The notes under the pieces: model-generated | The model's database searches: none | Seen by the model: the letters and a program-made list of their open reading frames with translations, nothing else | Told to the model about the DNA's origin: nothing | Assembly (NCBI GenBank): GCA_037380845.1 | Contig: JARRRI010000040.1 | Span: 7,779-34,614 of the forward strand | Direction: 5' to 3' | Length of the DNA stretch: 26,836 bases | DNA from: Candidatus Sulfobium sp. | GTDB lineage: Bacteria; Nitrospirota; Thermodesulfovibrionia; Thermodesulfovibrionales; UBA6898 | Part shown: positions 539 to 25,932 of the stretch, one piece after another | How positions within the stretch are numbered: position 1 is the first letter of the stretch | Layout: the number at the start of each line of letters is the position of its first letter | Position numbers and translations under genes: made by a program

Positions 539-964
539 TTAAAAAAACTTTATCCCTTTCAACAGGGATTCCCTGGCAATAACATAGGTGTTCTTTTTTT
601 CTATCCCCTTGAGGCGGATCGGACAGCAGCTGCCTATCCCTTCCTTTAACTCATCCAGGGGGTACTTCGCATTGCAGGAGCGGCACCTCATATCCCCTCC
701 GTCGGGATTAAATCCGAGCTTTCTCGGATAACATCGCGCGCATGCATTAAAGTAGGACTGAATTTCGCCATTTATCCTGACAATAAAAAAGCTCAGCTTC
801 TTGCCGTCGACTACGACCGAGTAGAATTCGGGCTGATTTTCCCTTACGCCGGTGATATCTATGCTTACGCTTTGCCCGTCAAATGGCAGGTCGTGGTAAG
901 GGATGCTCTTCGAGCATGAAAGCAGAAGCGTTGCCAGGACTGCAGGGATGATTAAAAACTTCAT
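539..964 (-). CDS. DUF2318-like Fe-S/metal-binding lipoprotein
   Basis: Lipobox-like LLSC after a hydrophobic N-terminus; FNACARC...MRCRSC...GSCCPIRL cysteine pattern typical of DUF2318. Confidence 0.75.
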   Translation of the reverse strand: MKFLIIPAVLATLLLSCSKSIPYHDLPFDGQSVSIDITGVRENQPEFYSVVVDGKKLSFFIVRINGEIQSYFNACARCYPRKLGFNPDGGDMRCRSCNAKYPLDELKEGIGSCCPIRLKGIEKKNTYVIARESLLKGIKFF

Positions 965-1123: not shown

Positions 1124-1411
1124 ATGATGAAAGTTGGAGCATTCCTGATTTTCGCTGTACTCGTTCTACCAATGACTTCTCCTTTATCCATATGTCCGCC
1201 TGTTTCATCTGATAGCAATAGCCACATTTTAACGCTCGATGTCTGTAACGCATCGGGTAGTGCGATATCTGTCAACGGCAGTATGCCTGCTATCCATGAA
1301 CGCCAGTGTAAGTCCTGTCTTTTGGAGTTCGACGGGTTTTACAGGATAGCAGACCCTCTCTTCATTCCTTTCTTTATCCCCTTTCAGCAGGACCGGCCTC
1401 CCAGAGTCTGA
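1124..1411 (+). CDS. Small exported/membrane protein with CxxC and C-terminal RPP; DUF2946/CruR/CutF-like leader peptide candidate
   Basis: Hydrophobic N-terminus, LDVC, CKSC, and Pro-rich tail PLFIPFFIPFQQDRPPRV; located directly upstream of the cytochrome operon. Confidence 0.65.
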   Translation: MMKVGAFLIFAVLVLPMTSPLSICPPVSSDSNSHILTLDVCNASGSAISVNGSMPAIHERQCKSCLLEFDGFYRIADPLFIPFFIPFQQDRPPRV

Positions 1412-1523
1412 ACCTCAGTCCCGGAGTTGCGATTCGCTGAGTTACTCTTCTTGATGGAAGGGCAGTCTGCCCGTCTGTTTGAGAAGCATCATTTACTTTA
1501 TTTTACTTTCTCCCCAAATACTC

Positions 1524-1571
1524 AGCTCCGCTTCGGAACACTTGACAAAAGCCGAAGCGGAGCTATTCTTT
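1524..1571 (+). promoter_or_regulatory. 13-bp perfect inverted repeat enclosing a -35 box; candidate promoter/operator and/or intrinsic terminator
   Basis: AGCTCCGCTTCGG (1524-1536) / CCGAAGCGGAGCT (1552-1564); TTGACA (1542-1547) in the loop; TATTCT at 1564-1569 (16-nt spacer); followed by ATTCTTT. Confidence 0.55.
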
Positions 1572-1632
1572 AACTGTATGTACTGCCCTCAGGGGGGATG
1601 TTCCGAGGCAAAAAGAATCTAAAGGAGGAGCA

Positions 1633-2991
1633 ATGAGAACAAAGAGGAGGACCAGATTTACCCTCGCCGTGATCAGCTTTCTCGGCATCGCCTGCGCGTT
1701 CGGCCTGGGTGGCACGCTCTTTGCGGCGGAAGCACCGGCATCCAGCGAGTGCATCAAATGTCATACCGACCTCAAAAAGATGGACCGTTATGGCGCCGCT
1801 TCCGCCGGAGGCGGCGCAGCGATAGCCGGTTGAGGCGTCTCCGCCCCTCAGGTGAGGGGCAGGGACACCTACGGTGTCGATAAGGACTATGTTGATTCCG
1901 TACATGGAAAAGTCGGGTGTATCAACTGCCATAAAGGAAAGAACGTTTCCGACAAGGACAAGGCCCACGAGGGGCTGGTGAAAGACCCGTCTGAAGAAGA
2001 CGGCGGCGGGGTTTGCAGACAGTGTCATGGGGACATAACCTCCACATACAAGAATGCCATGCATTATAACCTTACGGGCATCAAGGACATCGTCGGCACC
2101 CTTATTTCTCCGCATAAGATGAAAGATACCCTTCTGCCGGCTGCCTGGAAGCTGGACTGCGCCAATTGCCACGCCAGTTGCGGCAGCTGCCATGTGGCAT
2201 GGCCCAAGGTGGCCGAGGGCGGACTTCTCAACCGTCACCACTTCGAAAAGAACCCGCCCATGGAGAAAACATGCTATGCCTGCCACGGCTCCCGTTTCGC
2301 CGGTGAATATATGGGACTCCTTGGTCCCAGCCCGGACGTGCATTATGAAAAATACCAGATGGTCTGCACCGACTGCCACAAGGGCTCCGAACTGCATCAC
2401 ACAATGCCGGAAGGCGTCAAGCGTTACTATGCCACGGAGACGCCCCGCTGCGAACAGTGTCATGCGGATGTCGTCTCAGGGAGATCGGAAGTGGCAATGC
2501 ACAATGCGCACAAGAAAAATGAGCTGTCCTGCACTGTCTGCCACGCTACCGAGTACTTCAATTGCACCAACTGTCACGTATCTCTGGACGTCAAGGAGGC
2601 CGGAAACATAAAGGTGATCTTTCCGTCCGACCCTCTTTCAACCTTTAAGATCGGCAGGAATATCGACCGGAGCCCCGGCAATCCCTATGCATACAACCTC
2701 GTCCGTCATACACCGATGAAGAAGGACTCTCTCGCGTCTCTGCGCTATTTTCAAGCCGTTTTGACCGGAAAGCCGGGCCCGGAAGACCTGATTTCCAACT
2801 ATGACGCCCTTCCCACGTGGAATTCTGCTTCAATTCACACGATCCAGCGCAGGACAAAACAGAACAGTTCCTGCAATGCCTGTCACGGACACAGGGGGCT
2901 CTTTCTGACAAAGGATGACCTGGAGCCCGGCGACCCCGAGGCAAACCTCAAGGTAATAGTCAACGAGATTCCGCCGAGGATAAAGAAATGA
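1633..2991 (+). CDS. Exported multiheme cytochrome c with 11 CxxCH motifs; probable selenoprotein (UGA at 1831-1833 = Sec67), 452 aa
   Basis: SD AAGGAGGAG before ATG 1633; signal peptide; ORFs 1633-1833 and 1852-2991 share a frame and are separated only by TGA plus 6 sense codons. Motifs: CIKCH, CINCH, CRQCH, CANCH, CGSCH, CYACH, CTDCH, CEQCH, CTVCH, CTNCH, CNACH. SECIS-like hairpin directly after the TGA. Confidence 0.85.
1834..1869 (+). promoter_or_regulatory. Bacterial SECIS-like element
   Basis: GG-C-GTCTC-C-GCCCCTC-[AGGT]-GAGGGGC-A-GGGAC-A-CC. Perfect 7-bp apical stem plus lower stem; loop starts 16 nt after the UGA, with G at loop position 2. Confidence 0.8.
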
Positions 2992-3029
2992 CCGGGCCCG
3001 TAAAGTCAGATAACCGAAGGAGGAACTTC

Positions 3030-3986
3030 ATGAAAAGGAATTTGATACAGTCCGTTATAATATCGCTGCTTGTAGCGGTGACGGCACTGGTCTCGGCACC
3101 GGCGGCGTCGGCTGCGGGCGTCGACCACCTGGTGAGCACGGAGTGGCTGGCCAAAAATCTGGGTACTCCCGGTATGGTGATCGTCGATGTGAGAACCAAG
3201 GCCAACTACGATTTCGGTCACCTCCCGGGCGCCGTGAGCATGGCATACTCGGGATGGGAGCCTTACAACAAGAAGACACGATGCCAGATGATGCCCTCCG
3301 CGGCCGACATGACGGCCATGCTCAGAAAACTGGGCGTGAACCGGTCGTCCCGTGTCGTTATTTATGATGCGGGGAACACCACCCTTGATGCGACTCAGGG
3401 AGGTGCTGCGGTCTGGATAATGGAGTCCATGGGACATGAAAATGTTTCCTACCTCGACGGCGGGTTTACCAAATGGACATTCGAAGGCCGGATAATAGAC
3501 AAGAAAAAACCGGACATAAAGCCCGGAAATTTCATGGCAAAACTCGACAAAAGCAAGGTGGCCACTCTAAAGGATGTTATTGCCAATCTGAAAACGAAGA
3601 AGGCGATTCTTCTCGATGACAGGAGTGCGGTGCAACATTTCGGCATAGAAAAGCGGCCCGATGTTGTCAGGTACGGACACATTCCGGACTCGCTCAACTT
3701 CCCCATTGATTTCATGACGAATGCCGGGATAAACCGTGCTCCGGCGACCATAAAAAGCAGAAAAGAGCTCGATGCCATGGCGGAGGGAGTGGGCCTTCCA
3801 GCCGACAGGAATACGAAGATCATTGTCTACTGCAACAGCGCCCAGCAGGCGGGAATGGGTTATTTTATCCTCCGTGATATCATGGGGTACAGAAATGTTA
3901 AGGCATATGACGGGTCGATGCTCGAATATGCCCAGGATAAAAAGCTGCCTCTGGTCAGGTTCGCATGGGGTTTCGTTACCAGGTAG
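3030..3986 (+). CDS. Exported tandem-domain rhodanese/sulfurtransferase (SseA-like), catalytic Cys present
   Basis: SD AGGAGG before ATG 3030, preferred over 2988. Signal peptide ending APAASA; LVSTEWL, GHLPGA, LDGGF, GHIPDS, YCNSAQQA active-site loop, YDGSMLEY C-terminal signature. Confidence 0.9.
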   Translation: MKRNLIQSVIISLLVAVTALVSAPAASAAGVDHLVSTEWLAKNLGTPGMVIVDVRTKANYDFGHLPGAVSMAYSGWEPYNKKTRCQMMPSAADMTAMLRKLGVNRSSRVVIYDAGNTTLDATQGGAAVWIMESMGHENVSYLDGGFTKWTFEGRIIDKKKPDIKPGNFMAKLDKSKVATLKDVIANLKTKKAILLDDRSAVQHFGIEKRPDVVRYGHIPDSLNFPIDFMTNAGINRAPATIKSRKELDAMAEGVGLPADRNTKIIVYCNSAQQAGMGYFILRDIMGYRNVKAYDGSMLEYAQDKKLPLVRFAWGFVTR

Positions 3987-4019
3987 AAAGACCATATTTC
4001 CAAATACCATGGAGGAAAC

Positions 4020-4976
4020 ATGATGATGAATACATACAAGGTCAGACTGATTGCCTTTTTTGCCGCCGTGATTTTGGTTGTGAGCGCATCAGGCGCGACG
4101 GCGGCCGGGAAGGCAAAGCTGGTGAGCGTCGATTGGCTTGCCAGGAACCTCAGGACGCCCAATGTTGTGATACTCGATGTCGGGGCGTTTACCCAATATG
4201 AAAGGAGCCATGTGCCGGGCGCCGTTAGGGCCTTCGGCCCCTGGCAGACGATGAACGACCAATTTGTGGGTTTCATGATGCGGGATGTTGAGGACCTCGT
4301 CCGGATGCTTCGGAATTACGGCGTAAACAACAGCTCTTACGTAATTGTCTATGACGAAGGGGTGACGGCCCAGGACACCGCCAAGAGCGCAAGGGTCCTC
4401 TGGACGCTGCATGCCCTGGGGCATGACAGGGTGGCGATACTCGACGGCGGTTTTGCTGCCTGGAAACAGAAAGGCAAGAAAGTCTCCACTAAGGCTACCG
4501 TACCCCGGCCGGGAGATTTCACCGGCAAGCTTATAAAGTCCAAACTGGCCACCATGGACGAAGTTAAAGAAGCGCTGCGTTCGTCGGGAGCGGTTTTTGT
4601 GGATGATCGCCTTCCGGAGGAGGACTTCGGCCACGAAAAGAAAAGCTATATAAAACGGTACGGCCACCTTCCGGGATCAAGGTTGTGGCCGGCGGACTTC
4701 ATGACGAACGCCGGGATCGAGTTTTCCCCCTCCTTTATGAGGGATACGACGGAGCTGAAACAGATGGCGAAGGGGATAGGCATCCCGGCGGACAAGAACG
4801 TCGAGATTATAACCTATAGCACCCGCGGAATTCAGGCCGCCATGGGCTACTACGTTCTGCACGACCTGCTGGGTTATAAGAATGTTAAACTTTTTGACGG
4901 CTCCATCCTCGAAGCAGCGGCAGACAAGAGCGTGCCCATGAATACAAACGGATGGGGATACAAGAAGAAGATGTAG
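4020..4976 (+). CDS. Exported tandem-domain rhodanese paralog with Ser at the catalytic position
   Basis: SD GGAGG; signal peptide; LVSVDWL, HVPGA, LDGGF, GHLPGS, FDGSILE; the active-site loop reads YSTRGIQA. Confidence 0.9.
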   Translation: MMMNTYKVRLIAFFAAVILVVSASGATAAGKAKLVSVDWLARNLRTPNVVILDVGAFTQYERSHVPGAVRAFGPWQTMNDQFVGFMMRDVEDLVRMLRNYGVNNSSYVIVYDEGVTAQDTAKSARVLWTLHALGHDRVAILDGGFAAWKQKGKKVSTKATVPRPGDFTGKLIKSKLATMDEVKEALRSSGAVFVDDRLPEEDFGHEKKSYIKRYGHLPGSRLWPADFMTNAGIEFSPSFMRDTTELKQMAKGIGIPADKNVEIITYSTRGIQAAMGYYVLHDLLGYKNVKLFDGSILEAAADKSVPMNTNGWGYKKKM

Positions 4977-5009
4977 TCCCCGGCGTAGGAAGCAAAAGAA
5001 TTATCTTGG

Positions 5010-5038
5010 GGAAGCCCGCTCCTTTCAGGCGGGCTTCC
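5010..5038 (+). terminator. Hairpin closing the cytochrome-rhodanese operon
   Basis: GGAAGCCCGC (5010-5019) / GCGGGCTTCC (5029-5038), 10-bp stem; no strong U-tract. Confidence 0.5.
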
Positions 5039-5326
5039 TCACTTGGCCGACATTATTCATGGGCTTCAAATTCCATTCTCCGGGCCGGTCTGCTCCGCCG
5101 GGTGGGATGTATTTTGGGAGTCGCTTCGCTCAGACAGCCTGCAATTCCTGATGCGTCCCCTCGGTCACAGATTTGAAATTTAGAAAAGAAGTGAAACCCG
5201 ACCCCGCCAAAAGTCTGCATAGTTGCACCATTTTCATGTGAACTTCCTCCGGACTTAATCACAGACTGAGCTTTTTTTACTTTTTCCGTGCCGATAAGAT
5301 AGAATTCCAGTAAGGAATCTCTCTTA

Positions 5327-7210
5327 ATGGGCCGGAATAAAAGCGTTGAAACTGTTCCCCGCGAAGCAAAGAATGATCGCAATTCGCCGGCAAGCCTGGT
5401 TATCCTCCTGCTCCTTAATACGGGCCTCTCTGTCGCGATCGGCACGGGGTTCCTCCGCTATGGAGGCGACAAGGGGCCACTCGAAATATTGCAGTTTGCC
5501 GCGAACTTCATCGCCCTTAACCTCGCGGTCTCCCTTATTGCATTGATCATCGGTCTTCCATTCGGGCGGTGGAAAAAGTACGCCTGGCTTGCCCTTTTCG
5601 GGCTGCTCCAGGTCTTTCTTTTTGCCGATCTGAAGGTCTACGAGCTTTTCCGTTTTCATATAAACTCCCTGGTCTGGAACATGGTGACGACCGAGGGGGT
5701 GTCGGATTCCGTGATAGTGGGGACGTCCACCTATCTGTATGCCGTGACGGCCATTGCCGTGATTTTTTTCATCGAATGGCTGTTGGTCTATTTTTCGTCG
5801 AGGGCCTCCGGGGCTTTTGGAACAAGGCTGAAGGTGGCTGTAATAATAATATTTGGTCTTTCCATTGTGGCCGACAAAATGGTCTTTGCCTTCGGCGAGT
5901 TGTATAATATCCAGCCCATTACCAGGGCCGAAAGGCTTTATCCCCTTTACCAGCCGCTTAACGCGGAGCGCACGCTCTCACGTCTTCTCCACATCAAAGT
6001 CTCCGAACAGGAAAGGCTGCGGTCGGCTCCCCAGGGACATGGGAACCTTCTCCATTACCCGAAAAAACCTCTCGTGAGGGTGGGCGATAAAAGGGACCTT
6101 CCCAACGTAGTGCTGATCGCGGTGGAAGGTTTCAGGTTTGACATGCTCAACCCGAGCGTTACCCCCAACCTTTGGAAATTCGGCAGGGAGAATGTGATCT
6201 TTACCGACCATTACAGCGGTGGAAACGGTTCGAGGGCCGGGGTGTTCTCTTTACTCTATGGGCTCCAGGCCTCTTACTGGCACGATTTCCTGATTGAAAG
6301 AAGGTCCCCCGTCCTCATAGACTCTCTCATGTCTCTTGGATACCGCTTCAAAATACTTTCTGCCACGCGTCTCACATTCCCGGAATTCCGAAAGACGGCT
6401 TTCGTGAAGATACCGGAAGACATAGAAGACGAGCTGCAGGCAAAAGGCGGGGCCGGCAGGGACAGGGTGCTCGCCGAAAGGTTTATCGATTTCATTTCAA
6501 AGGGGGATGCGTCGAGGCCCTTTTTCTCGTTCATGTTTTTTAATGCATCGCATCAGCCTTACGCCTACCCAAAGGTATTTGAAAAGTTTACACCGGCTGC
6601 CCCCCCGGAGATAAATTATGTCGGTGAGGTGAAGAAGGCCAATGCGGCCCTGCTGAGGAACAGGTACAAGAACGCCCTCCACTATGACGATTCCCTCTTT
6701 GGAAGGATATTTTCGGCCCTTCGTGAGAAAGGCGTGCTTGACAATACGATAGTTATTGTAACGGGGGACCATGGAGAGGAGTTTTTCGAGCAGGGCTATT
6801 TCGGACATACGAGCTCTTTTGACGACTACGAGACAAAGACCGCCTTTGTAGTTCATATGCCGGGTGACAGGTATAAGGGGATGGAAGTGCGTAAACTTAC
6901 CAGTCACCTCGATGTCGTCCCCACCATAATGAAGGCCCTCGGCTATACCAACGATCCCTCGGACTACGCCGATGGCATCCCGCTTTTCGATGAGAGGGAG
7001 CATCCTTATGTATTTTCCGCCGGGTGGGACAGGCTCTGCATGATAGACAAGAACGTCAAGGTGGTCTTCGGCACGCAGACGTACAGAGGCACATTTGATG
7101 TGCTGGACTCAAGGACCTACAAGCCCGAGCCCGATGCGGACAGGATACTTAAGGCGAAAAAGGGCGAGATATCGGACGTCTTGAGAAGAATGTCCGCTTT
7201 CTACAAGTGA
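5327..7210 (+). CDS. Inner-membrane sulfatase-fold protein, YejM/PbgA (DUF3413) family-like
   Basis: About 5 N-terminal TM segments with YELFRFHINSLV and PLYQPL; PNVVLIAVEGFRFD, HYSGGNGSRAGVFSLLYGL, TGDHGEEF, TSHLDVVPT. Confidence 0.85.
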   Translation: MGRNKSVETVPREAKNDRNSPASLVILLLLNTGLSVAIGTGFLRYGGDKGPLEILQFAANFIALNLAVSLIALIIGLPFGRWKKYAWLALFGLLQVFLFADLKVYELFRFHINSLVWNMVTTEGVSDSVIVGTSTYLYAVTAIAVIFFIEWLLVYFSSRASGAFGTRLKVAVIIIFGLSIVADKMVFAFGELYNIQPITRAERLYPLYQPLNAERTLSRLLHIKVSEQERLRSAPQGHGNLLHYPKKPLVRVGDKRDLPNVVLIAVEGFRFDMLNPSVTPNLWKFGRENVIFTDHYSGGNGSRAGVFSLLYGLQASYWHDFLIERRSPVLIDSLMSLGYRFKILSATRLTFPEFRKTAFVKIPEDIEDELQAKGGAGRDRVLAERFIDFISKGDASRPFFSFMFFNASHQPYAYPKVFEKFTPAAPPEINYVGEVKKANAALLRNRYKNALHYDDSLFGRIFSALREKGVLDNTIVIVTGDHGEEFFEQGYFGHTSSFDDYETKTAFVVHMPGDRYKGMEVRKLTSHLDVVPTIMKALGYTNDPSDYADGIPLFDEREHPYVFSAGWDRLCMIDKNVKVVFGTQTYRGTFDVLDSRTYKPEPDADRILKAKKGEISDVLRRMSAFYK

Positions 7211-21969: not shown

Positions 21970-23082
21970 ATGAAAAAAATCAAAATACGCAAGGGAGACC
22001 TGGAGGAGATCTTCGGGAGGCTGGAGGAAACTCACAGAGTGATCGGTCCGAAGGTCGAAAACAGTGCGGTCGTTCTGGCGGAAATCGAATTCGCGGACCT
22101 TCCGGCAGGTGTGAAGGATCTCCAGTCGCCGGGATGCTACAGGCTGGAAAACAACAAAAGAGAGGATGTCATCTTTTCCTTCTCGCAGGGCCCCCGTTCC
22201 TTCAAGAATTTCCTCAGTCCCTCCATCCAGGAGTTGTCCAGGTTCAGCAGGACTAGAAGGGGGATGACGATGCAGGATATCTCCGTAGAAGAGAGGCCTT
22301 TCGCCTTTGTCGGCGTCAGGGCCTGCGACCTGGCGGCGCTGAAGCTGCTCGATCAGGTTTTCCTCGAGGGACCGGTCGGGGACAAGGCCTATTCCCGGAG
22401 GAGAAGGGACATTTTGATAATCGCCGTCAACTGTCTCAATCCGGGCGGAAACTGCTTTTGCGACTCCATGGGGACCGGCCCCGAGGCGACATCCGGTTTC
22501 GACCTGTCGATGACCGAGATCGGCGGGCATTTTCTCATCGAGGCCGGCACGGCCGGGGGAGAGAGGCTCATTGAAGGAATTCCGGGTGCCTGGGTTACGG
22601 ACGGTGACCTTGAGGAGAAGGCGGCAAAAATTCTGGAATGCAGGAAGAACATCGGCAAATCGATGGAAATATCAGACCTTCCAGGGGTGCTTTACAGGAA
22701 CATGGAACATCCCAGATGGACCGAGATAGCCGACAGGGACCTCGAATGCGGGAACTGCACAATGGTCTGCCCCACGTGTTTCTGCAACTCCACTTACGAC
22801 TTTTTGCCCGCCGCGGAGATTTCGGGCAGCCTGAAGGAGTGGGGTGGCGTCCGGATGAGGAAATGGGATTCCTGCTTTTCGAAGAATTTCGCGAGGGTCC
22901 ACGGAGGCAATTTCAGGAGGTCGAGAAGGGCCAGGTACCGCCACTGGATGACTCACAAGCTGGCATACTGGATAGACCAGTTCGGTTCTCCGGGCTGCGT
23001 AGGATGCGGCAGGTGCATAACCTGGTGCCCGGTGGGACTGGACATCAGCCGTGAGCTTGCGGAGATAAGGAATGTACGATAG
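21970..23082 (+). CDS. hydB: Group 3b [NiFe] hydrogenase (sulfhydrogenase) beta subunit, 4Fe-4S dicluster
   Basis: GVRACD, CFCDSMGTGP, CGNCTMVCPTCFC, RKWDSCF, HWMTHKL, GCVGCGRCITWCPVG. Confidence 0.88.
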   Translation: MKKIKIRKGDLEEIFGRLEETHRVIGPKVENSAVVLAEIEFADLPAGVKDLQSPGCYRLENNKREDVIFSFSQGPRSFKNFLSPSIQELSRFSRTRRGMTMQDISVEERPFAFVGVRACDLAALKLLDQVFLEGPVGDKAYSRRRRDILIIAVNCLNPGGNCFCDSMGTGPEATSGFDLSMTEIGGHFLIEAGTAGGERLIEGIPGAWVTDGDLEEKAAKILECRKNIGKSMEISDLPGVLYRNMEHPRWTEIADRDLECGNCTMVCPTCFCNSTYDFLPAAEISGSLKEWGGVRMRKWDSCFSKNFARVHGGNFRRSRRARYRHWMTHKLAYWIDQFGSPGCVGCGRCITWCPVGLDISRELAEIRNVR

Positions 23083-23905
23083 GTCGGTCCCATTTGAGGC
23101 CGTAATAAAATGGATAAAGAAAGAAACAAGAGACACGGCGACCTATGCCCTGAAGATAAGGAACAGCGAGGTCCAGAAGGCTTACAGGTTTGCGCCGGGC
23201 CAGTTCAACATGCTCTCCTTCCCCGGCATCGGGGAATCGGCCATTTCCATAAGCTCGGGGACGTCGGACCATGATCTCCTGCACACCATGAGGGTTGCCG
23301 GGGACGTTACTACCGCCATATCCAGACTCGGCGCGGGAGACGTCATAGGAATCAGAGGACCTTTCGGGAAGGGCTGGCCCATGGAAGAAGCCGAAAACAG
23401 GGACCTGATGATAATTGCAGGGGGGGTGGGCATAGCCCCTCTCAGGTCCGTGATACGCCACTTCTATGCATCCAGAAAGTCCTGTCCGGGCAAGGACATC
23501 ATACTTTACGGTGTCAAGACTCCCAAGGACATCATTTACAGAGACGAGTTCCCGCGCTACCGGGATGTCTTCCAGGTCTTCCTCACCGTTGACAAGGCCG
23601 ACCCCGAGGAGTACTGGAAGGGTGATGTCGGATTTGTGACAAAACTGCTGGACAAGGTCACTTTCAACCCCCTCGGCACGACGGTCTTCATCTGTGGGCC
23701 CGAGATAATGATGCAGGTTACGATCAGGGAACTGCTTCTGAGGGGCGTTCCGGGGGAAAAGATATTCCTCATCATGGAAAGGAACATGAACTGCGGGATG
23801 GGAGTTTGCGGACACTGTATGTTCGGTCCTAAGTTCGTTTGCAGGGACGGGGCCGTTTTCAGATACGCCGACATCGGGGAATTCATGGGGATCAAGGAGG
23901 TCTGA
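23072..23905 (+). CDS. hydG: Group 3b hydrogenase gamma subunit (FAD/NAD(P)-binding, 2Fe-2S)
   Basis: PGQFNML, RGPFG, AGGVGIAPLR, CGPEIMM, ERNMNCGMGVCGHC...VCRDG. Confidence 0.88.
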   Translation: MYDRSVPFEAVIKWIKKETRDTATYALKIRNSEVQKAYRFAPGQFNMLSFPGIGESAISISSGTSDHDLLHTMRVAGDVTTAISRLGAGDVIGIRGPFGKGWPMEEAENRDLMIIAGGVGIAPLRSVIRHFYASRKSCPGKDIILYGVKTPKDIIYRDEFPRYRDVFQVFLTVDKADPEEYWKGDVGFVTKLLDKVTFNPLGTTVFICGPEIMMQVTIRELLLRGVPGEKIFLIMERNMNCGMGVCGHCMFGPKFVCRDGAVFRYADIGEFMGIKEV

Positions 23906-23906
23906 G

Positions 23907-24671
23907 ATGAAAAGACTCCGTATCGGCGTCTTCAAGTTCACCTCCTGCGACGGATGCCAGCTTTCGATCCTGAACCTTGAAGAGCGGCTTCTCCGGCTTC
24001 TTGATTTCTTCGAGATCGCCTACTTCCGTGAGGCGGCTGACCTGCCGCCCAGGAGACAGTACGATGCGGCGATCGTAGAGGGCTCCATATCGACCCAGTG
24101 GCAGAGGAAGGAAATCATGGAAATTCGCGACAAGTCCCGGTTCCTGATAACCATAGGGGCCTGTGCCACGGCGGGAGGACTTCAGGCCCTGAGAGACTGG
24201 GCAAATGTTTCCGACTATAAGAGGAGCGTCTATCCCTCACCCGACCTTATCAGTGTTTTTGCCATGTCAACGCCTGTGTCGGAACATGCATATGTCGATT
24301 ACGAATTGTGGGGGTGTCCGATAGACAAGAACGCCCTGTCGGAGACGCTCGTTTCACTTGTAATCGGAAAGAGGCCGGGAATTCCTGTTTACAGCCTGTG
24401 CATGGACTGCAAGATCAAAGGCATACCGTGCCTCCTCGTCTCGCGGGCCGAACCCTGTCTCGGCCCCGTAACGAGGACCGGCTGCGGAGTGTTATGTCCT
24501 TCCTTTGGCAGACCCTGCTACGGATGTTTCGGGCCGAGGGACGGCGCCAATATCAACTCTCTCCTTGAGCGTTTCAGGAATATAGGGCTCTCCCAGAAAG
24601 AAACCGTCCTTCTGCTGGACAAGATGAATACTTATGCATACAGGAAGGCCCGGATTGAAGAAGCTCATTAA
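23907..24671 (+). CDS. hydD: Group 3b hydrogenase delta (small) subunit
   Basis: KFTSCDGCQL, VEGSI, GACATAGG, GCP, CMDC, CLGPVTRTGC, CYGCFGP. Confidence 0.9.
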   Translation: MKRLRIGVFKFTSCDGCQLSILNLEERLLRLLDFFEIAYFREAADLPPRRQYDAAIVEGSISTQWQRKEIMEIRDKSRFLITIGACATAGGLQALRDWANVSDYKRSVYPSPDLISVFAMSTPVSEHAYVDYELWGCPIDKNALSETLVSLVIGKRPGIPVYSLCMDCKIKGIPCLLVSRAEPCLGPVTRTGCGVLCPSFGRPCYGCFGPRDGANINSLLERFRNIGLSQKETVLLLDKMNTYAYRKARIEEAH

Positions 24672-25932
24672 ATCAGACTATCTGGCCAGGGTGGAGGGTG
24701 AGGGCGGGTTTACCGTGAGGATCGAGGACGGTAAGATAACGGGGCTCAATGTCCGCATCTTCGAGGCCCCCAGATTTTTTGAATCCTTTCTGGAAGGAAG
24801 GCCGTTCGAGGACGTAGTGGACTTTACCGCCAGGATATGCGGCATCTGCCCGGTGGCATATCAGATGACTTCCGCTCATGCCATCGAAAAGATATTCGGA
24901 GTCGAACCGTCTCTTCCCTTGAGGCAGCTCCGGCGGCTGATGTATTGCGGGGAATGGATAGAAAGCCACGCCCTCCACGTTTACCTTCTCCACGGACCGG
25001 ACTTCTTCGGACTGGAGAGCGCCTTTGCCGGAAAGCAGTACCTCGAAACAGCAAAAAGGGGGATGAAGCTCAAACAGGTCGGAAACGACATCCTTGCCCT
25101 GCTGGGCGGAAGGCCGGTCCATCCGGTGTCCGTGAAGGTGGGAGGGTTCTACAAGGTGCCGGAGAAGAAGACTCTTGACGCCCTGATGCCTGAAATCGAG
25201 AGATGTTACGAAGAATCCCTGGAAGGGATCAAATGGGCATCTTCTCTGCCTTTCAGCAACAGGTCGCGGGAGGCGGAGTTTGTCTCACTGGGGCATCCCC
25301 ACGAATATCCATTCAGTGAAGGTGATATCGTATCGACCGGAGGGCTGAAGATGCCTCCCGGTGAATTTCTGGACATCCTCCAGGAATATCAGACTGAGCA
25401 TTCCACCGCCCTCTATTCAGGTATCAAAAGGGAGTCGTCCGTAAGCCCTTATGTGCTCGGGCCCGTGTCCAGACTCAATCTGAACCATGAAAAACTGCCT
25501 TACGAGATCACGGGGGTCATGAAAGACGCCCGAATAGCGCTCCCCATAACTAATAACGAGATGAGCATCATAGCACGTTCGGTCGAGCTTGCTTATTCGT
25601 TTTACGAAGCAATGAGGATCATCAGGGGATATCAAACTCCCGACCGCTCCTGTGAGGAATTCGAACCCCGGGCCGGAACGGCTGTCTGGGCGACGGAGGC
25701 GCCGAGGGGGACGCTGATCCATCGCTACGAGATCGACGAAAAGGGAAACGTAAAGAAATGCTCGATCCTCCCGCCCACTTCCCAGAACCTAAGTCAGATG
25801 GAGAAGGACATTTACGCTTTTGTCGAGGCCAACATAAATAAACCTTCAGGCTTCATCAGGAAGGAAACGGAAAAGATAATGAGGGCCTACGACCCGTGCA
25901 TCTCCTGTTCCGTGCACGTGGTGCAGGTTTAG
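24655..25932 (+). CDS. hydA: Group 3b [NiFe] hydrogenase alpha (large) subunit
   Basis: ARVEGEG, L1 RICGICP, EAPRGTL, L2 YDPCISCSVH plus 4-residue tail VVQV; probable TTG start at 24655 after AGGAAGG. Confidence 0.93.
   Translation: MKKLIKSDYLARVEGEGGFTVRIEDGKITGLNVRIFEAPRFFESFLEGRPFEDVVDFTARICGICPVAYQMTSAHAIEKIFGVEPSLPLRQLRRLMYCGEWIESHALHVYLLHGPDFFGLESAFAGKQYLETAKRGMKLKQVGNDILALLGGRPVHPVSVKVGGFYKVPEKKTLDALMPEIERCYEESLEGIKWASSLPFSNRSREAEFVSLGHPHEYPFSEGDIVSTGGLKMPPGEFLDILQEYQTEHSTALYSGIKRESSVSPYVLGPVSRLNLNHEKLPYEITGVMKDARIALPITNNEMSIIARSVELAYSFYEAMRIIRGYQTPDRSCEEFEPRAGTAVWATEAPRGTLIHRYEIDEKGNVKKCSILPPTSQNLSQMEKDIYAFVEANINKPSGFIRKETEKIMRAYDPCISCSVHVVQV

Follow-up and report, generated by a model that had tools for sequence, protein, structure and literature searches.

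A candidate periplasmic module for sulfane-sulfur redox chemistry, built on an eleven-heme selenocytochrome and two rhodaneses, in Candidatus Sulfobium

We analysed 26,836 nucleotides of DNA from Candidatus Sulfobium sp. (assembly GCA_037380845.1, contig JARRRI010000040.1, positions 7,779 to 34,614), here called the window. It carries a cassette of three genes on the forward strand. The first encodes a multiheme cytochrome c with an in-frame TGA that very probably specifies selenocysteine (Sec). The others, rhd1 and rhd2, encode rhodaneses with export signals. Our preferred interpretation, held with moderate confidence, is that the products form a self-contained periplasmic module, independent of molybdenum, for redox chemistry of sulfane sulfur (S–S bonds). 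We favour such chemistry because of the analogy with MccSep (ExtKL, GSU2937-2936) of Geobacter sulfurreducens. This has been shown to be a polysulfide reductase, the Sec of which attacks the substrate beside a heme (PMC13510729). Candidate substrates would be polysulfide, thiosulfate/tetrathionate and selenite. The direction could be reductive or oxidative.

Linkage of the cytochrome and rhodanese genes

Features of the locus are listed in Table 1. Gaps of 38 and 33 nucleotides separate the cytochrome stop from the rhd1 start, and rhd1 from rhd2, respectively. Ribosome-binding sites (GGAGG at 1624-1628, AAGGAGG at 3017-3023 and GGAGG at 4011-4015) each lie 4-6 nucleotides before an ATG. An earlier rhd1 start, at ATG 2988, was rejected; orthologs align from the 3030 start. 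A sequence-only reading of the window had described four co-oriented genes with export signals, the last three being tightly spaced behind strong Shine–Dalgarno sequences and closed by a hairpin at 5010-5038. These descriptions were borne out. All four open reading frames (ORFs) are on the forward strand and, judged by eye from the translations, each product opens with a basic n-region and a hydrophobic stretch. The closing stem-loop is slightly longer than described; no run of T follows it and it is absent from the terminator-scan list. The unit itself comprises three genes, not four. Rfam gave no match in the locus.

Table 1. Features in and around the cassette (positions are those of the window)
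Feature	Position	Strand	Description
Cytochrome gene	1633-2991	+	452 amino acids with TGA 1831-1833 read through; 11 CxxCH motifs
In-frame TGA, very probably read as selenocysteine (U67)	1831-1833	+	Conserved TGA, hairpin, Sec machinery in the genome
SECIS-like hairpin	1837-1866	+	4 nucleotides after the TGA; upper stem 1843-1849 with 1854-1860; loop AGGU
rhd1	3030-3986	+	318 amino acids; exported two-domain rhodanese
rhd2	4020-4976	+	318 amino acids; exported two-domain rhodanese paralog without cysteine
Stem-loop closing the operon	5007-5041	+	14 pairs; -26.7 kcal/mol; z -3.76; 1 of 200 shuffles folds as well
Inverted repeat and promoter-like site	1524-1569	+	13-bp repeat at 1524-1564; site at 1542-1569
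Small ORF	1124-1411	+	95 amino acids, cysteine-containing; probably outside the unit
FtrD-like gene	539-964	-	PF10080; lipoprotein-type signal (LLSC); two CxxC pairs
Hydrogenase-like genes	21970-25932	+	About 17 kb from the cassette; 4Fe-4S dicluster protein, NAD-binding/Fe-S protein, Oxidored_q6 small subunit, NiFe large subunit

The same reading found no molybdopterin subunit, porin or quinol-oxidising subunit. We agree: Pfam identified none in 22 window ORFs (the six nearest the locus and 16 further large ones), and none travels with the cassette in the 12 loci where flanks were checked. Those flanks differ, encoding SecDF, TPR proteins, CopCD, a P-type ATPase, YcaO and others. Nothing else is common to them. 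Sensor kinases adjoin the cassette in three of the 12.

We compared 52 related loci, taken from one-genome-per-species contigs. Among the 37 close orthologs (at least 60% identity), the cytochrome gene, rhd1 and rhd2 occur in the same order in 33; some copies are fragmented (L007, L035 and L052). In the other four, the contig stops within or directly behind the cytochrome gene (L012, L033) or rhd1 (L026, L031). Hence no close locus with enough contig, among the 37, is without the rhodaneses.

A sister clade has natural fusions. In all 24 loci retrieved from it, one polypeptide of about 700 amino acids comprises the 11-heme cytochrome and then a tandem rhodanese with an active-site cysteine (T-[TS]-C-N-T). 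The fusions were found by whole-genome search, with Pfam confirmation on two of the 24 loci; no fused form was found among proteins of 794-2265 amino acids. In the order to which one carrier genome (G151) belongs, a homolog is present in 44 of 151 sampled genomes, 18 having the unfused type and 26 a frame of about 700 amino acids. A more distant unfused clade includes Chloroflexota, Calditrichota and Desulfobacterales. There, a local rhodanese hidden Markov model detected a same-strand rhodanese ORF beside the cytochrome gene in 10 of 15 loci. The sequence-only reading had proposed such a neighbourhood survey, naming lack of co-occurrence as an argument against its case. That objection fails. 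We conclude that there is a strong case for the cytochrome and rhodanese being a functional pair; as gene-context evidence, this is about the strongest obtainable.

At one Sec-type fusion gene (locus L064), the adjoining gene on the opposite strand (4260-5702, minus strand) encodes a membrane-anchored multiheme protein of the NapC/NirT family. It is a possible quinol link. The same query found no such protein in the other 23 fused loci.

The probable selenocysteine codon and the predicted fold of the cytochrome

Residue 67 of the cytochrome lies in a G-x-G motif after heme 1. Its codon is TGA in 46 of the 52 loci and TGG in one. The motif was not found in the remaining five: two lack the N-terminus, one is frameshifted, one is fragmentary and one has other residues. 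Among 24 unfused full-length rows of the alignment, TGA is present in 23 and Glu in one (L051); Cys is present in none. The 24 fused homologs have Sec (16), Tyr (6) or Cys (2) at this position. Two loci have unusual features. In the locus with TGG, encoding Trp (L037 6094, Anaerolineae), the frame continues upstream into another multiheme ORF; a crude extension of the ORF gives a provisional count of 24 CxxCH motifs. One ortholog (L006 (1064); G042:C160:674-2032) has an in-frame TAA besides the Sec TGA, and may be a pseudogene or an assembly error.

The TGA is followed by a hairpin resembling a selenocysteine insertion sequence (SECIS). Positions 1825-1900 fold at -36.9 kcal/mol (z -3.52), and none of 200 shuffles was as good. 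In the distant clade the sequence differs here, yet a hairpin of eight pairs occupies the same place, with two pairs changed on both sides. Pair 16-28 is GC in nine rows and CG in three, while pair 20-24 is CG in 11 and AU in one. The change at pair 16-28 exchanges Pro and Ala between two codons. In a mixed alignment of 26 rows, 8 of 500 shuffled versions paired to at least the same percentage, and covariation did not exceed that of the shuffles. This control is weak, the two clades having different pairing registers.

The host genome encodes the machinery for Sec. It has selB (331.6 bits, over the cut-off), selD (over its cut-off, with neighbours in frame; G000:C20:72213-73058) and tRNA-Sec (C31:4083-4180). 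The selD gene itself contains one in-frame TGA, and its product is probably a selenoprotein too. With the conserved codon, the hairpin and this machinery, the assignment of Sec made by the sequence-only reading stands as very probable.

Were the TGA a true stop, the locus would encode a 66-amino-acid heme peptide and a 379-amino-acid ten-heme cytochrome, or else be a pseudogene. Public gene callers do give the downstream piece of 379 amino acids alone, annotated as hypothetical. However, that piece has no signal peptide, yet export is needed for heme attachment. Moreover, the frame, TGA and downstream hairpin are kept across phyla in the 46 loci, and selB, selD and tRNA-Sec are present. We regard termination at this codon as exceedingly improbable. 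In one annotation source, several cytochrome fragments (P0008, P0043, P0048, P0061 and others) are named 'thiosulfate/3-mercaptopyruvate sulfurtransferase'. This name was probably carried over from fused relatives.

The eight fused rows without Sec (L063, L065 and L080-L085) have also lost His359, to Glu, Gln or Lys, and Arg221, to Pro. These rows form one clade. Hence, going by the alignment and tree, the losses are to be counted as one event, not eight. A DUF3373 protein adjoins all eight fusion genes and a diheme cytochrome c adjoins seven; the contig of L082 ends first.

Briefly, the cytochrome consists of a signal peptide, heme 1 (C40xxCH), a Gly/Ala-rich arm, the G-U67-G motif and hemes 2-11. 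All 48 aligned homologs retain the 11 CxxCH motifs without change, and no cysteine outside these motifs is conserved among them. Pfam recognises cytochrome c7/c3 domains. Two other readings of the N-terminus were rejected: a Tat signal (RR in the n-region), since orthologs have no RR, and a lipoprotein anchor (GIAC), since the cysteine is unconserved.

NCBIfam has no model for the protein. At E ≤10 the only model to score, apart from noise, was the DmsE-type decaheme model, with 29.9 bits (cut-off 192); most matches with E above ~0.1 are removed by the HMMER filters. A 2026 review of prokaryotic selenoproteins lists three cytochrome-type families, ExtKL (NF040886), GSU2204 (NF041027) and octaheme tetrathionate reductase (OTR; TIGR04315) (PMC13188914). 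None of these models matches the cytochrome at E ≤10 (cut-offs of 250 bits for NF040886 and 375 bits for TIGR04315). No sequence in the PDB matches below E 0.02. By full-text search, in which most subscription journals are outside coverage, we found no account of an 11-heme selenocytochrome or of the rhodanese cassette, the results being MccSep, a selenoproteome review and papers on other subjects. The family appears undescribed, as the sequence-only reading had supposed for the system.

We modelled the cytochrome using AlphaFold2. With an alignment of 121 rows, the predicted local distance difference test (pLDDT) was 85.4 and the predicted template modelling score 0.81; an earlier model from 24 sequences (pLDDT 47.4) was too poor for use. 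The model is weak in two places only, the signal peptide and residues 61-66 immediately ahead of Sec. Using VIA-align, residues 88-452 superpose on Shewanella OTR (1sp3) with Z 9.6 and a root-mean-square deviation of 4.9 Å over 278 residues, at 18% identity; the match spans the entire 1sp3 chain. The next-best structural entry has Z 4.8. Foldseek placed 1SP3 at E 2.6e-3 (template modelling score 0.38) and gave no match at E ≤0.001. From the superposition, the cytochrome body is therefore predicted to be OTR-like with extra hemes, heme 1 and the Sec arm being an N-terminal addition.

This fold bears on a first alternative for the substrate. The cytochrome could interconvert thiosulfate and tetrathionate, or cleave thiosulfate reductively, in the manner of OTR and TsdA, while the rhodanese pair binds or splits thiosulfate. 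OTR is the best and only clear fold match and, as described below, Rhd1 resembles thiosulfate sulfurtransferases over its full length. Furthermore, TsdA and SoxAX use an anionic chalcogen heme ligand for such chemistry (PMC13510729). However, TIGR04315 is silent on the cytochrome; this model also finds nothing in the host genome but is silent in every control genome too, which makes the host result uninformative. In addition, the CNSAQQ loop of Rhd1 is without the Arg/Lys of thiosulfate-specific rhodaneses. We consider this alternative unlikely. It overlaps with our preferred interpretation and differs in substrate only.

The cytochrome might instead reduce nitrogen oxides (nitrite or hydroxylamine) as do OTR, NrfA and relatives of HAO, with the rhodaneses serving maturation or protection only. 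Such a role would fit the lower-scoring structural matches (Z 2.6-4.8) to HAO, octaheme nitrite reductase and NrfA, and OTR is promiscuous (PMC13510729). Nevertheless, the fusion to a rhodanese with an active cysteine, seen at all 24 loci, points to a sulfur substrate. The 12 flanks contain no nitrogen-cycle gene. We judge a nitrogen-oxide reductase to be very improbable.

The rhodanese pair and a proposed mechanism

Both rhodaneses match the Pfam Rhodanese family (PF00581) in two stretches, with 113.5 bits for Rhd1 and 90.6 bits for Rhd2. Solved sulfurtransferases match Rhd1 over its full length, the best being 8k55 at 117.7 bits. The active-site loop of Rhd1 is C268-N-S-A-Q-Q, with C268 unchanged in all 33 orthologs compared. 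Another cysteine, C85, is kept in at least 90% of orthologs. Rhd2 is 43% identical to Rhd1. In 32 of 32 Rhd2 orthologs Ser267 replaces the catalytic cysteine, and the copy in the window has no cysteine anywhere. The sequence-only reading had proposed two exported rhodaneses as sulfur carriers. Both have the rhodanese fold but, to go by their residues, only Rhd1 would be able to carry a persulfide.

Kinship to the ExtKL and ExtH proteins, which that reading had also drawn on, was not upheld. NF040886 is silent on the cytochrome, as noted, and the ExtH model (NF040901, cut-off 200 bits) gives 48.7 bits for Rhd1 and 60.9 bits for Rhd2. Scores for SseA/3-mercaptopyruvate sulfurtransferase (NF008557, cut-off 250 bits) are likewise below the cut-off, at 114.2 and 86.4 bits, respectively.

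ExtH takes its family name from a selenite/tellurite operon. Its weak matches to both rhodaneses can be read in favour of selenite or tellurite reduction, or detoxification, with the rhodanese carrying selenium instead of sulfur. Consistent with this, MccSep reduces selenite too, although less well than polysulfide (PMC13510729), and a TPMT/TehB-like methyltransferase is encoded near one locus (L032). However, the ExtH scores are far below the cut-off, no selenium-specific gene is conserved beside the cassette in the 12 flanks, and the carriers are sulfur-cycling anaerobes. We think this explanation improbable.

We predicted the structure of a complex between Rhd1 and Rhd2. The interface score, ipSAE, was 0.91 in all three runs, and 0.01 in the best of three controls. 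Contacts agree between runs by at least 96%, and the partner pLDDT is at least 92. Of 157 solved complexes, 116 pass our mark for such predictions, as do 2 of 215 mismatched pairs; the mark is a rough guide here, where our own alignments were used. The predicted contacts involve the C-terminal domains and conserved C-terminal Trp tails. Thus, the model supports formation of a heterodimer by Rhd1 and the cysteine-less Rhd2.

We propose the following mechanism. Rhd1 and Rhd2 would pair as a heterodimer, which would take sulfane sulfur from polysulfide, S0-derived species or thiosulfate and hold it as a persulfide on Cys268 of Rhd1. Sec67 would be carried on the flexible Gly/Ala-rich arm that links heme 1 to the OTR-like body of ten hemes. 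It would attack the Cys268 persulfide, or free substrate, giving a Se-S adduct next to a heme. The chain of eleven hemes would then shuttle electrons between the Sec site and periplasmic carriers encoded elsewhere, and sulfide would be released. The predicted heme body is of sufficient length to connect a catalytic site with external partners. The same chemistry could run in reverse. In this scheme the gene structure, recoding signals, conservation, linkage, fusions and the Cys/Ser pattern of the rhodaneses are observed, the OTR-like fold and the Rhd1-Rhd2 pairing are model predictions, and the substrate, the direction and the hand-over from Cys268 to Sec67 are inferred.

Sec67 might be the distal axial ligand of one heme. 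The resulting His/selenolate heme c would take sulfane sulfur directly from the rhodanese heterodimer. We put this forward tentatively, and think it on balance unlikely. If true, such a heme would correspond, with selenium in place of sulfur, to the His/Cys hemes of TsdA, SoxAX and MccSep. Two observations fit. First, Sec, Cys and Tyr can all act as anionic heme ligands. Second, loss of Sec goes with loss of His359 and Arg221 in the same eight rows, which are a single clade. Counting distal histidines does not provide proof, and we rejected that argument. Nine histidines outside the CxxCH motifs are conserved in at least 47 of 48 rows; in addition, His359 is present in 39 of 48 and Met243 in 46 of 48, and these two can bring the count to eleven. 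Because every heme can be ligated without Sec, the ligand count cannot decide the matter.

Several points weigh against the sulfane-sulfur module. The cassette includes no gene for an electron donor or acceptor, so either direction would be compatible with it. The cassette is sparse in the host order, where the cytochrome is found in 6 of 151 sampled genomes including the host (G000), and in none of 15 others of the host family. Tyr in place of Sec, in six of 24 fused homologs, is a misfit with a purely nucleophilic role for residue 67. Confidence in the cytochrome model is lowest at the Sec arm (residues 61-66). OTR also reduces nitrite, so a match to its fold does not fix the substrate (PMC13510729). 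Finally, the predicted Rhd1-Rhd2 contacts may echo the homodimer interface of the family, because the two proteins are paralogous and the interface is nearly symmetric.

Distribution, neighbouring features and comparison with known systems

Carriers of the cassette are Desulfobulbia-type bacteria, some Thermodesulfovibrionales, Chloroflexota and others. A search of 1.84 billion cluster representatives gave 443 matches at E ≤0.001 and 96 at E ≤1e-30. In a quick tree of 62 rows (midpoint root; support from the Shimodaira–Hasegawa-like approximate likelihood ratio test), the seven Nitrospirota rows form one clade (99). This falls within a larger clade of 30 rows (100), the remaining members of which are of Desulfobulbia type. 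The topology fits one transfer from Desulfobulbia-type bacteria into Nitrospirota, without proving it.

This distribution also bears on direction. The module could be oxidative, with sulfide, polysulfide or S0 being oxidised in the periplasm and electrons passing to the cytochrome pool, for example during sulfide oxidation or disproportionation in Desulfobulbia-type bacteria. The family is frequent in the order of G151 (the 44 of 151 genomes given above). Judging from record titles, that order holds Desulfobulbaceae and Desulfurivibrionaceae, for which disproportionation and sulfide oxidation are known (PMC12545173). A long heme chain would also suit electron export. Conversely, the single characterised Sec-multiheme enzyme is a reductase. 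The host genome carries dsrA, which favours sulfur chemistry in general, but nothing here fixes the direction in which it works. We consider an oxidative module rather unlikely.

Upstream of the cassette lies the small ORF, which the sequence-only reading had counted as the 'leader peptide' of the system. We do not retain it. It encodes a conserved small exported protein with several cysteines, motifs TLDVC-x-ASGSALSVNG and a C-terminal DRPPR[VA], and matches no Pfam or NCBIfam family. By tblastn, it lies upstream of the cytochrome gene in only five of the 52 loci (27-73% identity; L001, L002, L004, L005 and L006), all from Nitrospirota. Between this ORF and the cytochrome gene is an inverted repeat. 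TTGACA, resembling a -35 element, lies exactly in the loop of the repeat and TATTCT follows 16 nucleotides later; a promoter scan scored 10 of 12 matches. Positions 1524-1564 fold at -25.7 kcal/mol (z -6.83), and none of 200 shuffles was as good. The repeat and promoter-like site are present in five of six aligned Nitrospirota loci, including L003 and L008, both of which are without the small ORF. In L008, both arms of the repeat have changed in step, so that pairing is kept. Hence, since the promoter-like site lies between and is kept in loci without the ORF, the operon most likely starts after the small ORF. The latter is probably a lineage-restricted neighbour. The repeat itself may terminate the small ORF, act as an operator or do both.

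Other neighbours in the window encode an FtrD-like lipoprotein, a YejM-like protein, thrS/infC/rplT/pheST and further housekeeping functions. The FtrD-like gene neighbours the cassette only in the window, in L001 and L005 (adjacent) and in L006 (downstream); its product could be a lineage-specific electron carrier. The four genes at 21970-25932 look like those of a cytoplasmic group-3-type NiFe hydrogenase.

Anaerobic reduction, oxidation and disproportionation of zero-valent sulfur outside the cytoplasm are still poorly understood. MccSep, published in August 2026, was the first Sec-heme polysulfide reductase (PMC13510729). The cassette would be a second, independent solution, with Sec on a heme wire, a sulfur carrier and a different fold. 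In public annotation the gene is broken at the TGA and the piece is labelled hypothetical, so that the family is overlooked in genome-based surveys of the sulfur cycle. What the present analysis adds is the cysteine-less Rhd2 and the heterodimer prediction, the natural fusions, the predicted OTR-like fold, exclusion of the small ORF, and the Sec/Cys/Tyr series with its covariation with His359. The fusions and the predicted heterodimer with a dead subunit offer direct handles for biochemistry. Likewise, the Sec/Cys/Tyr series provides ready-made natural variants of the active site.

MccSep carries five hemes and an Ig-like stem. Its Sec325, within a D-G-U-P loop, lies beside a His/Cys heme, the conserved Cys being a ligand of heme 2. 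It has been linked both to thioredoxin reductase and to TsdA and SoxAX acting in reverse (PMC13510729). The cassette shares with MccSep/ExtH an exported multiheme cytochrome c with one Sec, near a rhodanese-like protein and without molybdenum. In contrast to MccSep, the window cytochrome has 11 hemes, Sec67 in a G-U-G motif near the N-terminus and no conserved extra cysteine. The two systems can coexist: genome G151 holds a true ExtKL member (444.8 bits, one TGA) plus this cassette, at different sites. The host genome has no ExtKL member over the cut-off, its best match being 22 bits.

In TsdA and SoxAX, an anionic chalcogen residue at a c-type heme performs S-S bond chemistry (PMC13510729). 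The exchange of Sec, Cys and Tyr at residue 67 would fit a heme ligand of this kind. However, TsdA and SoxAX are diheme proteins, without a rhodanese partner and without Sec.

Selenoprotein forms exist within the OTR family TIGR04315 (PMC13188914). OTR of Shewanella oneidensis (1SP3) resembles the cytochrome in predicted fold, and both would be periplasmic multiheme enzymes of sulfur and nitrogen oxyanion chemistry. Conversely, the window cytochrome has 11 hemes rather than eight, with an extra N-terminal heme and Sec arm, and the identity in the structural alignment is the 18% given above. Mowat et al. are said to have described, in 2004, a lysine-ligated active-site heme in OTR.

Sud of Wolinella succinogenes is a periplasmic rhodanese-type polysulfide-sulfur transferase that feeds polysulfide reductase, Psr. 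The proposed module would resemble this pair, in that sulfane sulfur passes from a rhodanese in the periplasm to a reductase of respiration. The components differ. Psr is a membrane-bound molybdopterin reductase and Sud a single-domain homodimer, whereas here a Sec-heme protein would work with a predicted heterodimer of two-domain proteins, one of them a dead subunit. We conclude that a Sec-heme enzyme with a rhodanese is of a kind known since 2026, while the cytochrome family and its architecture are new.

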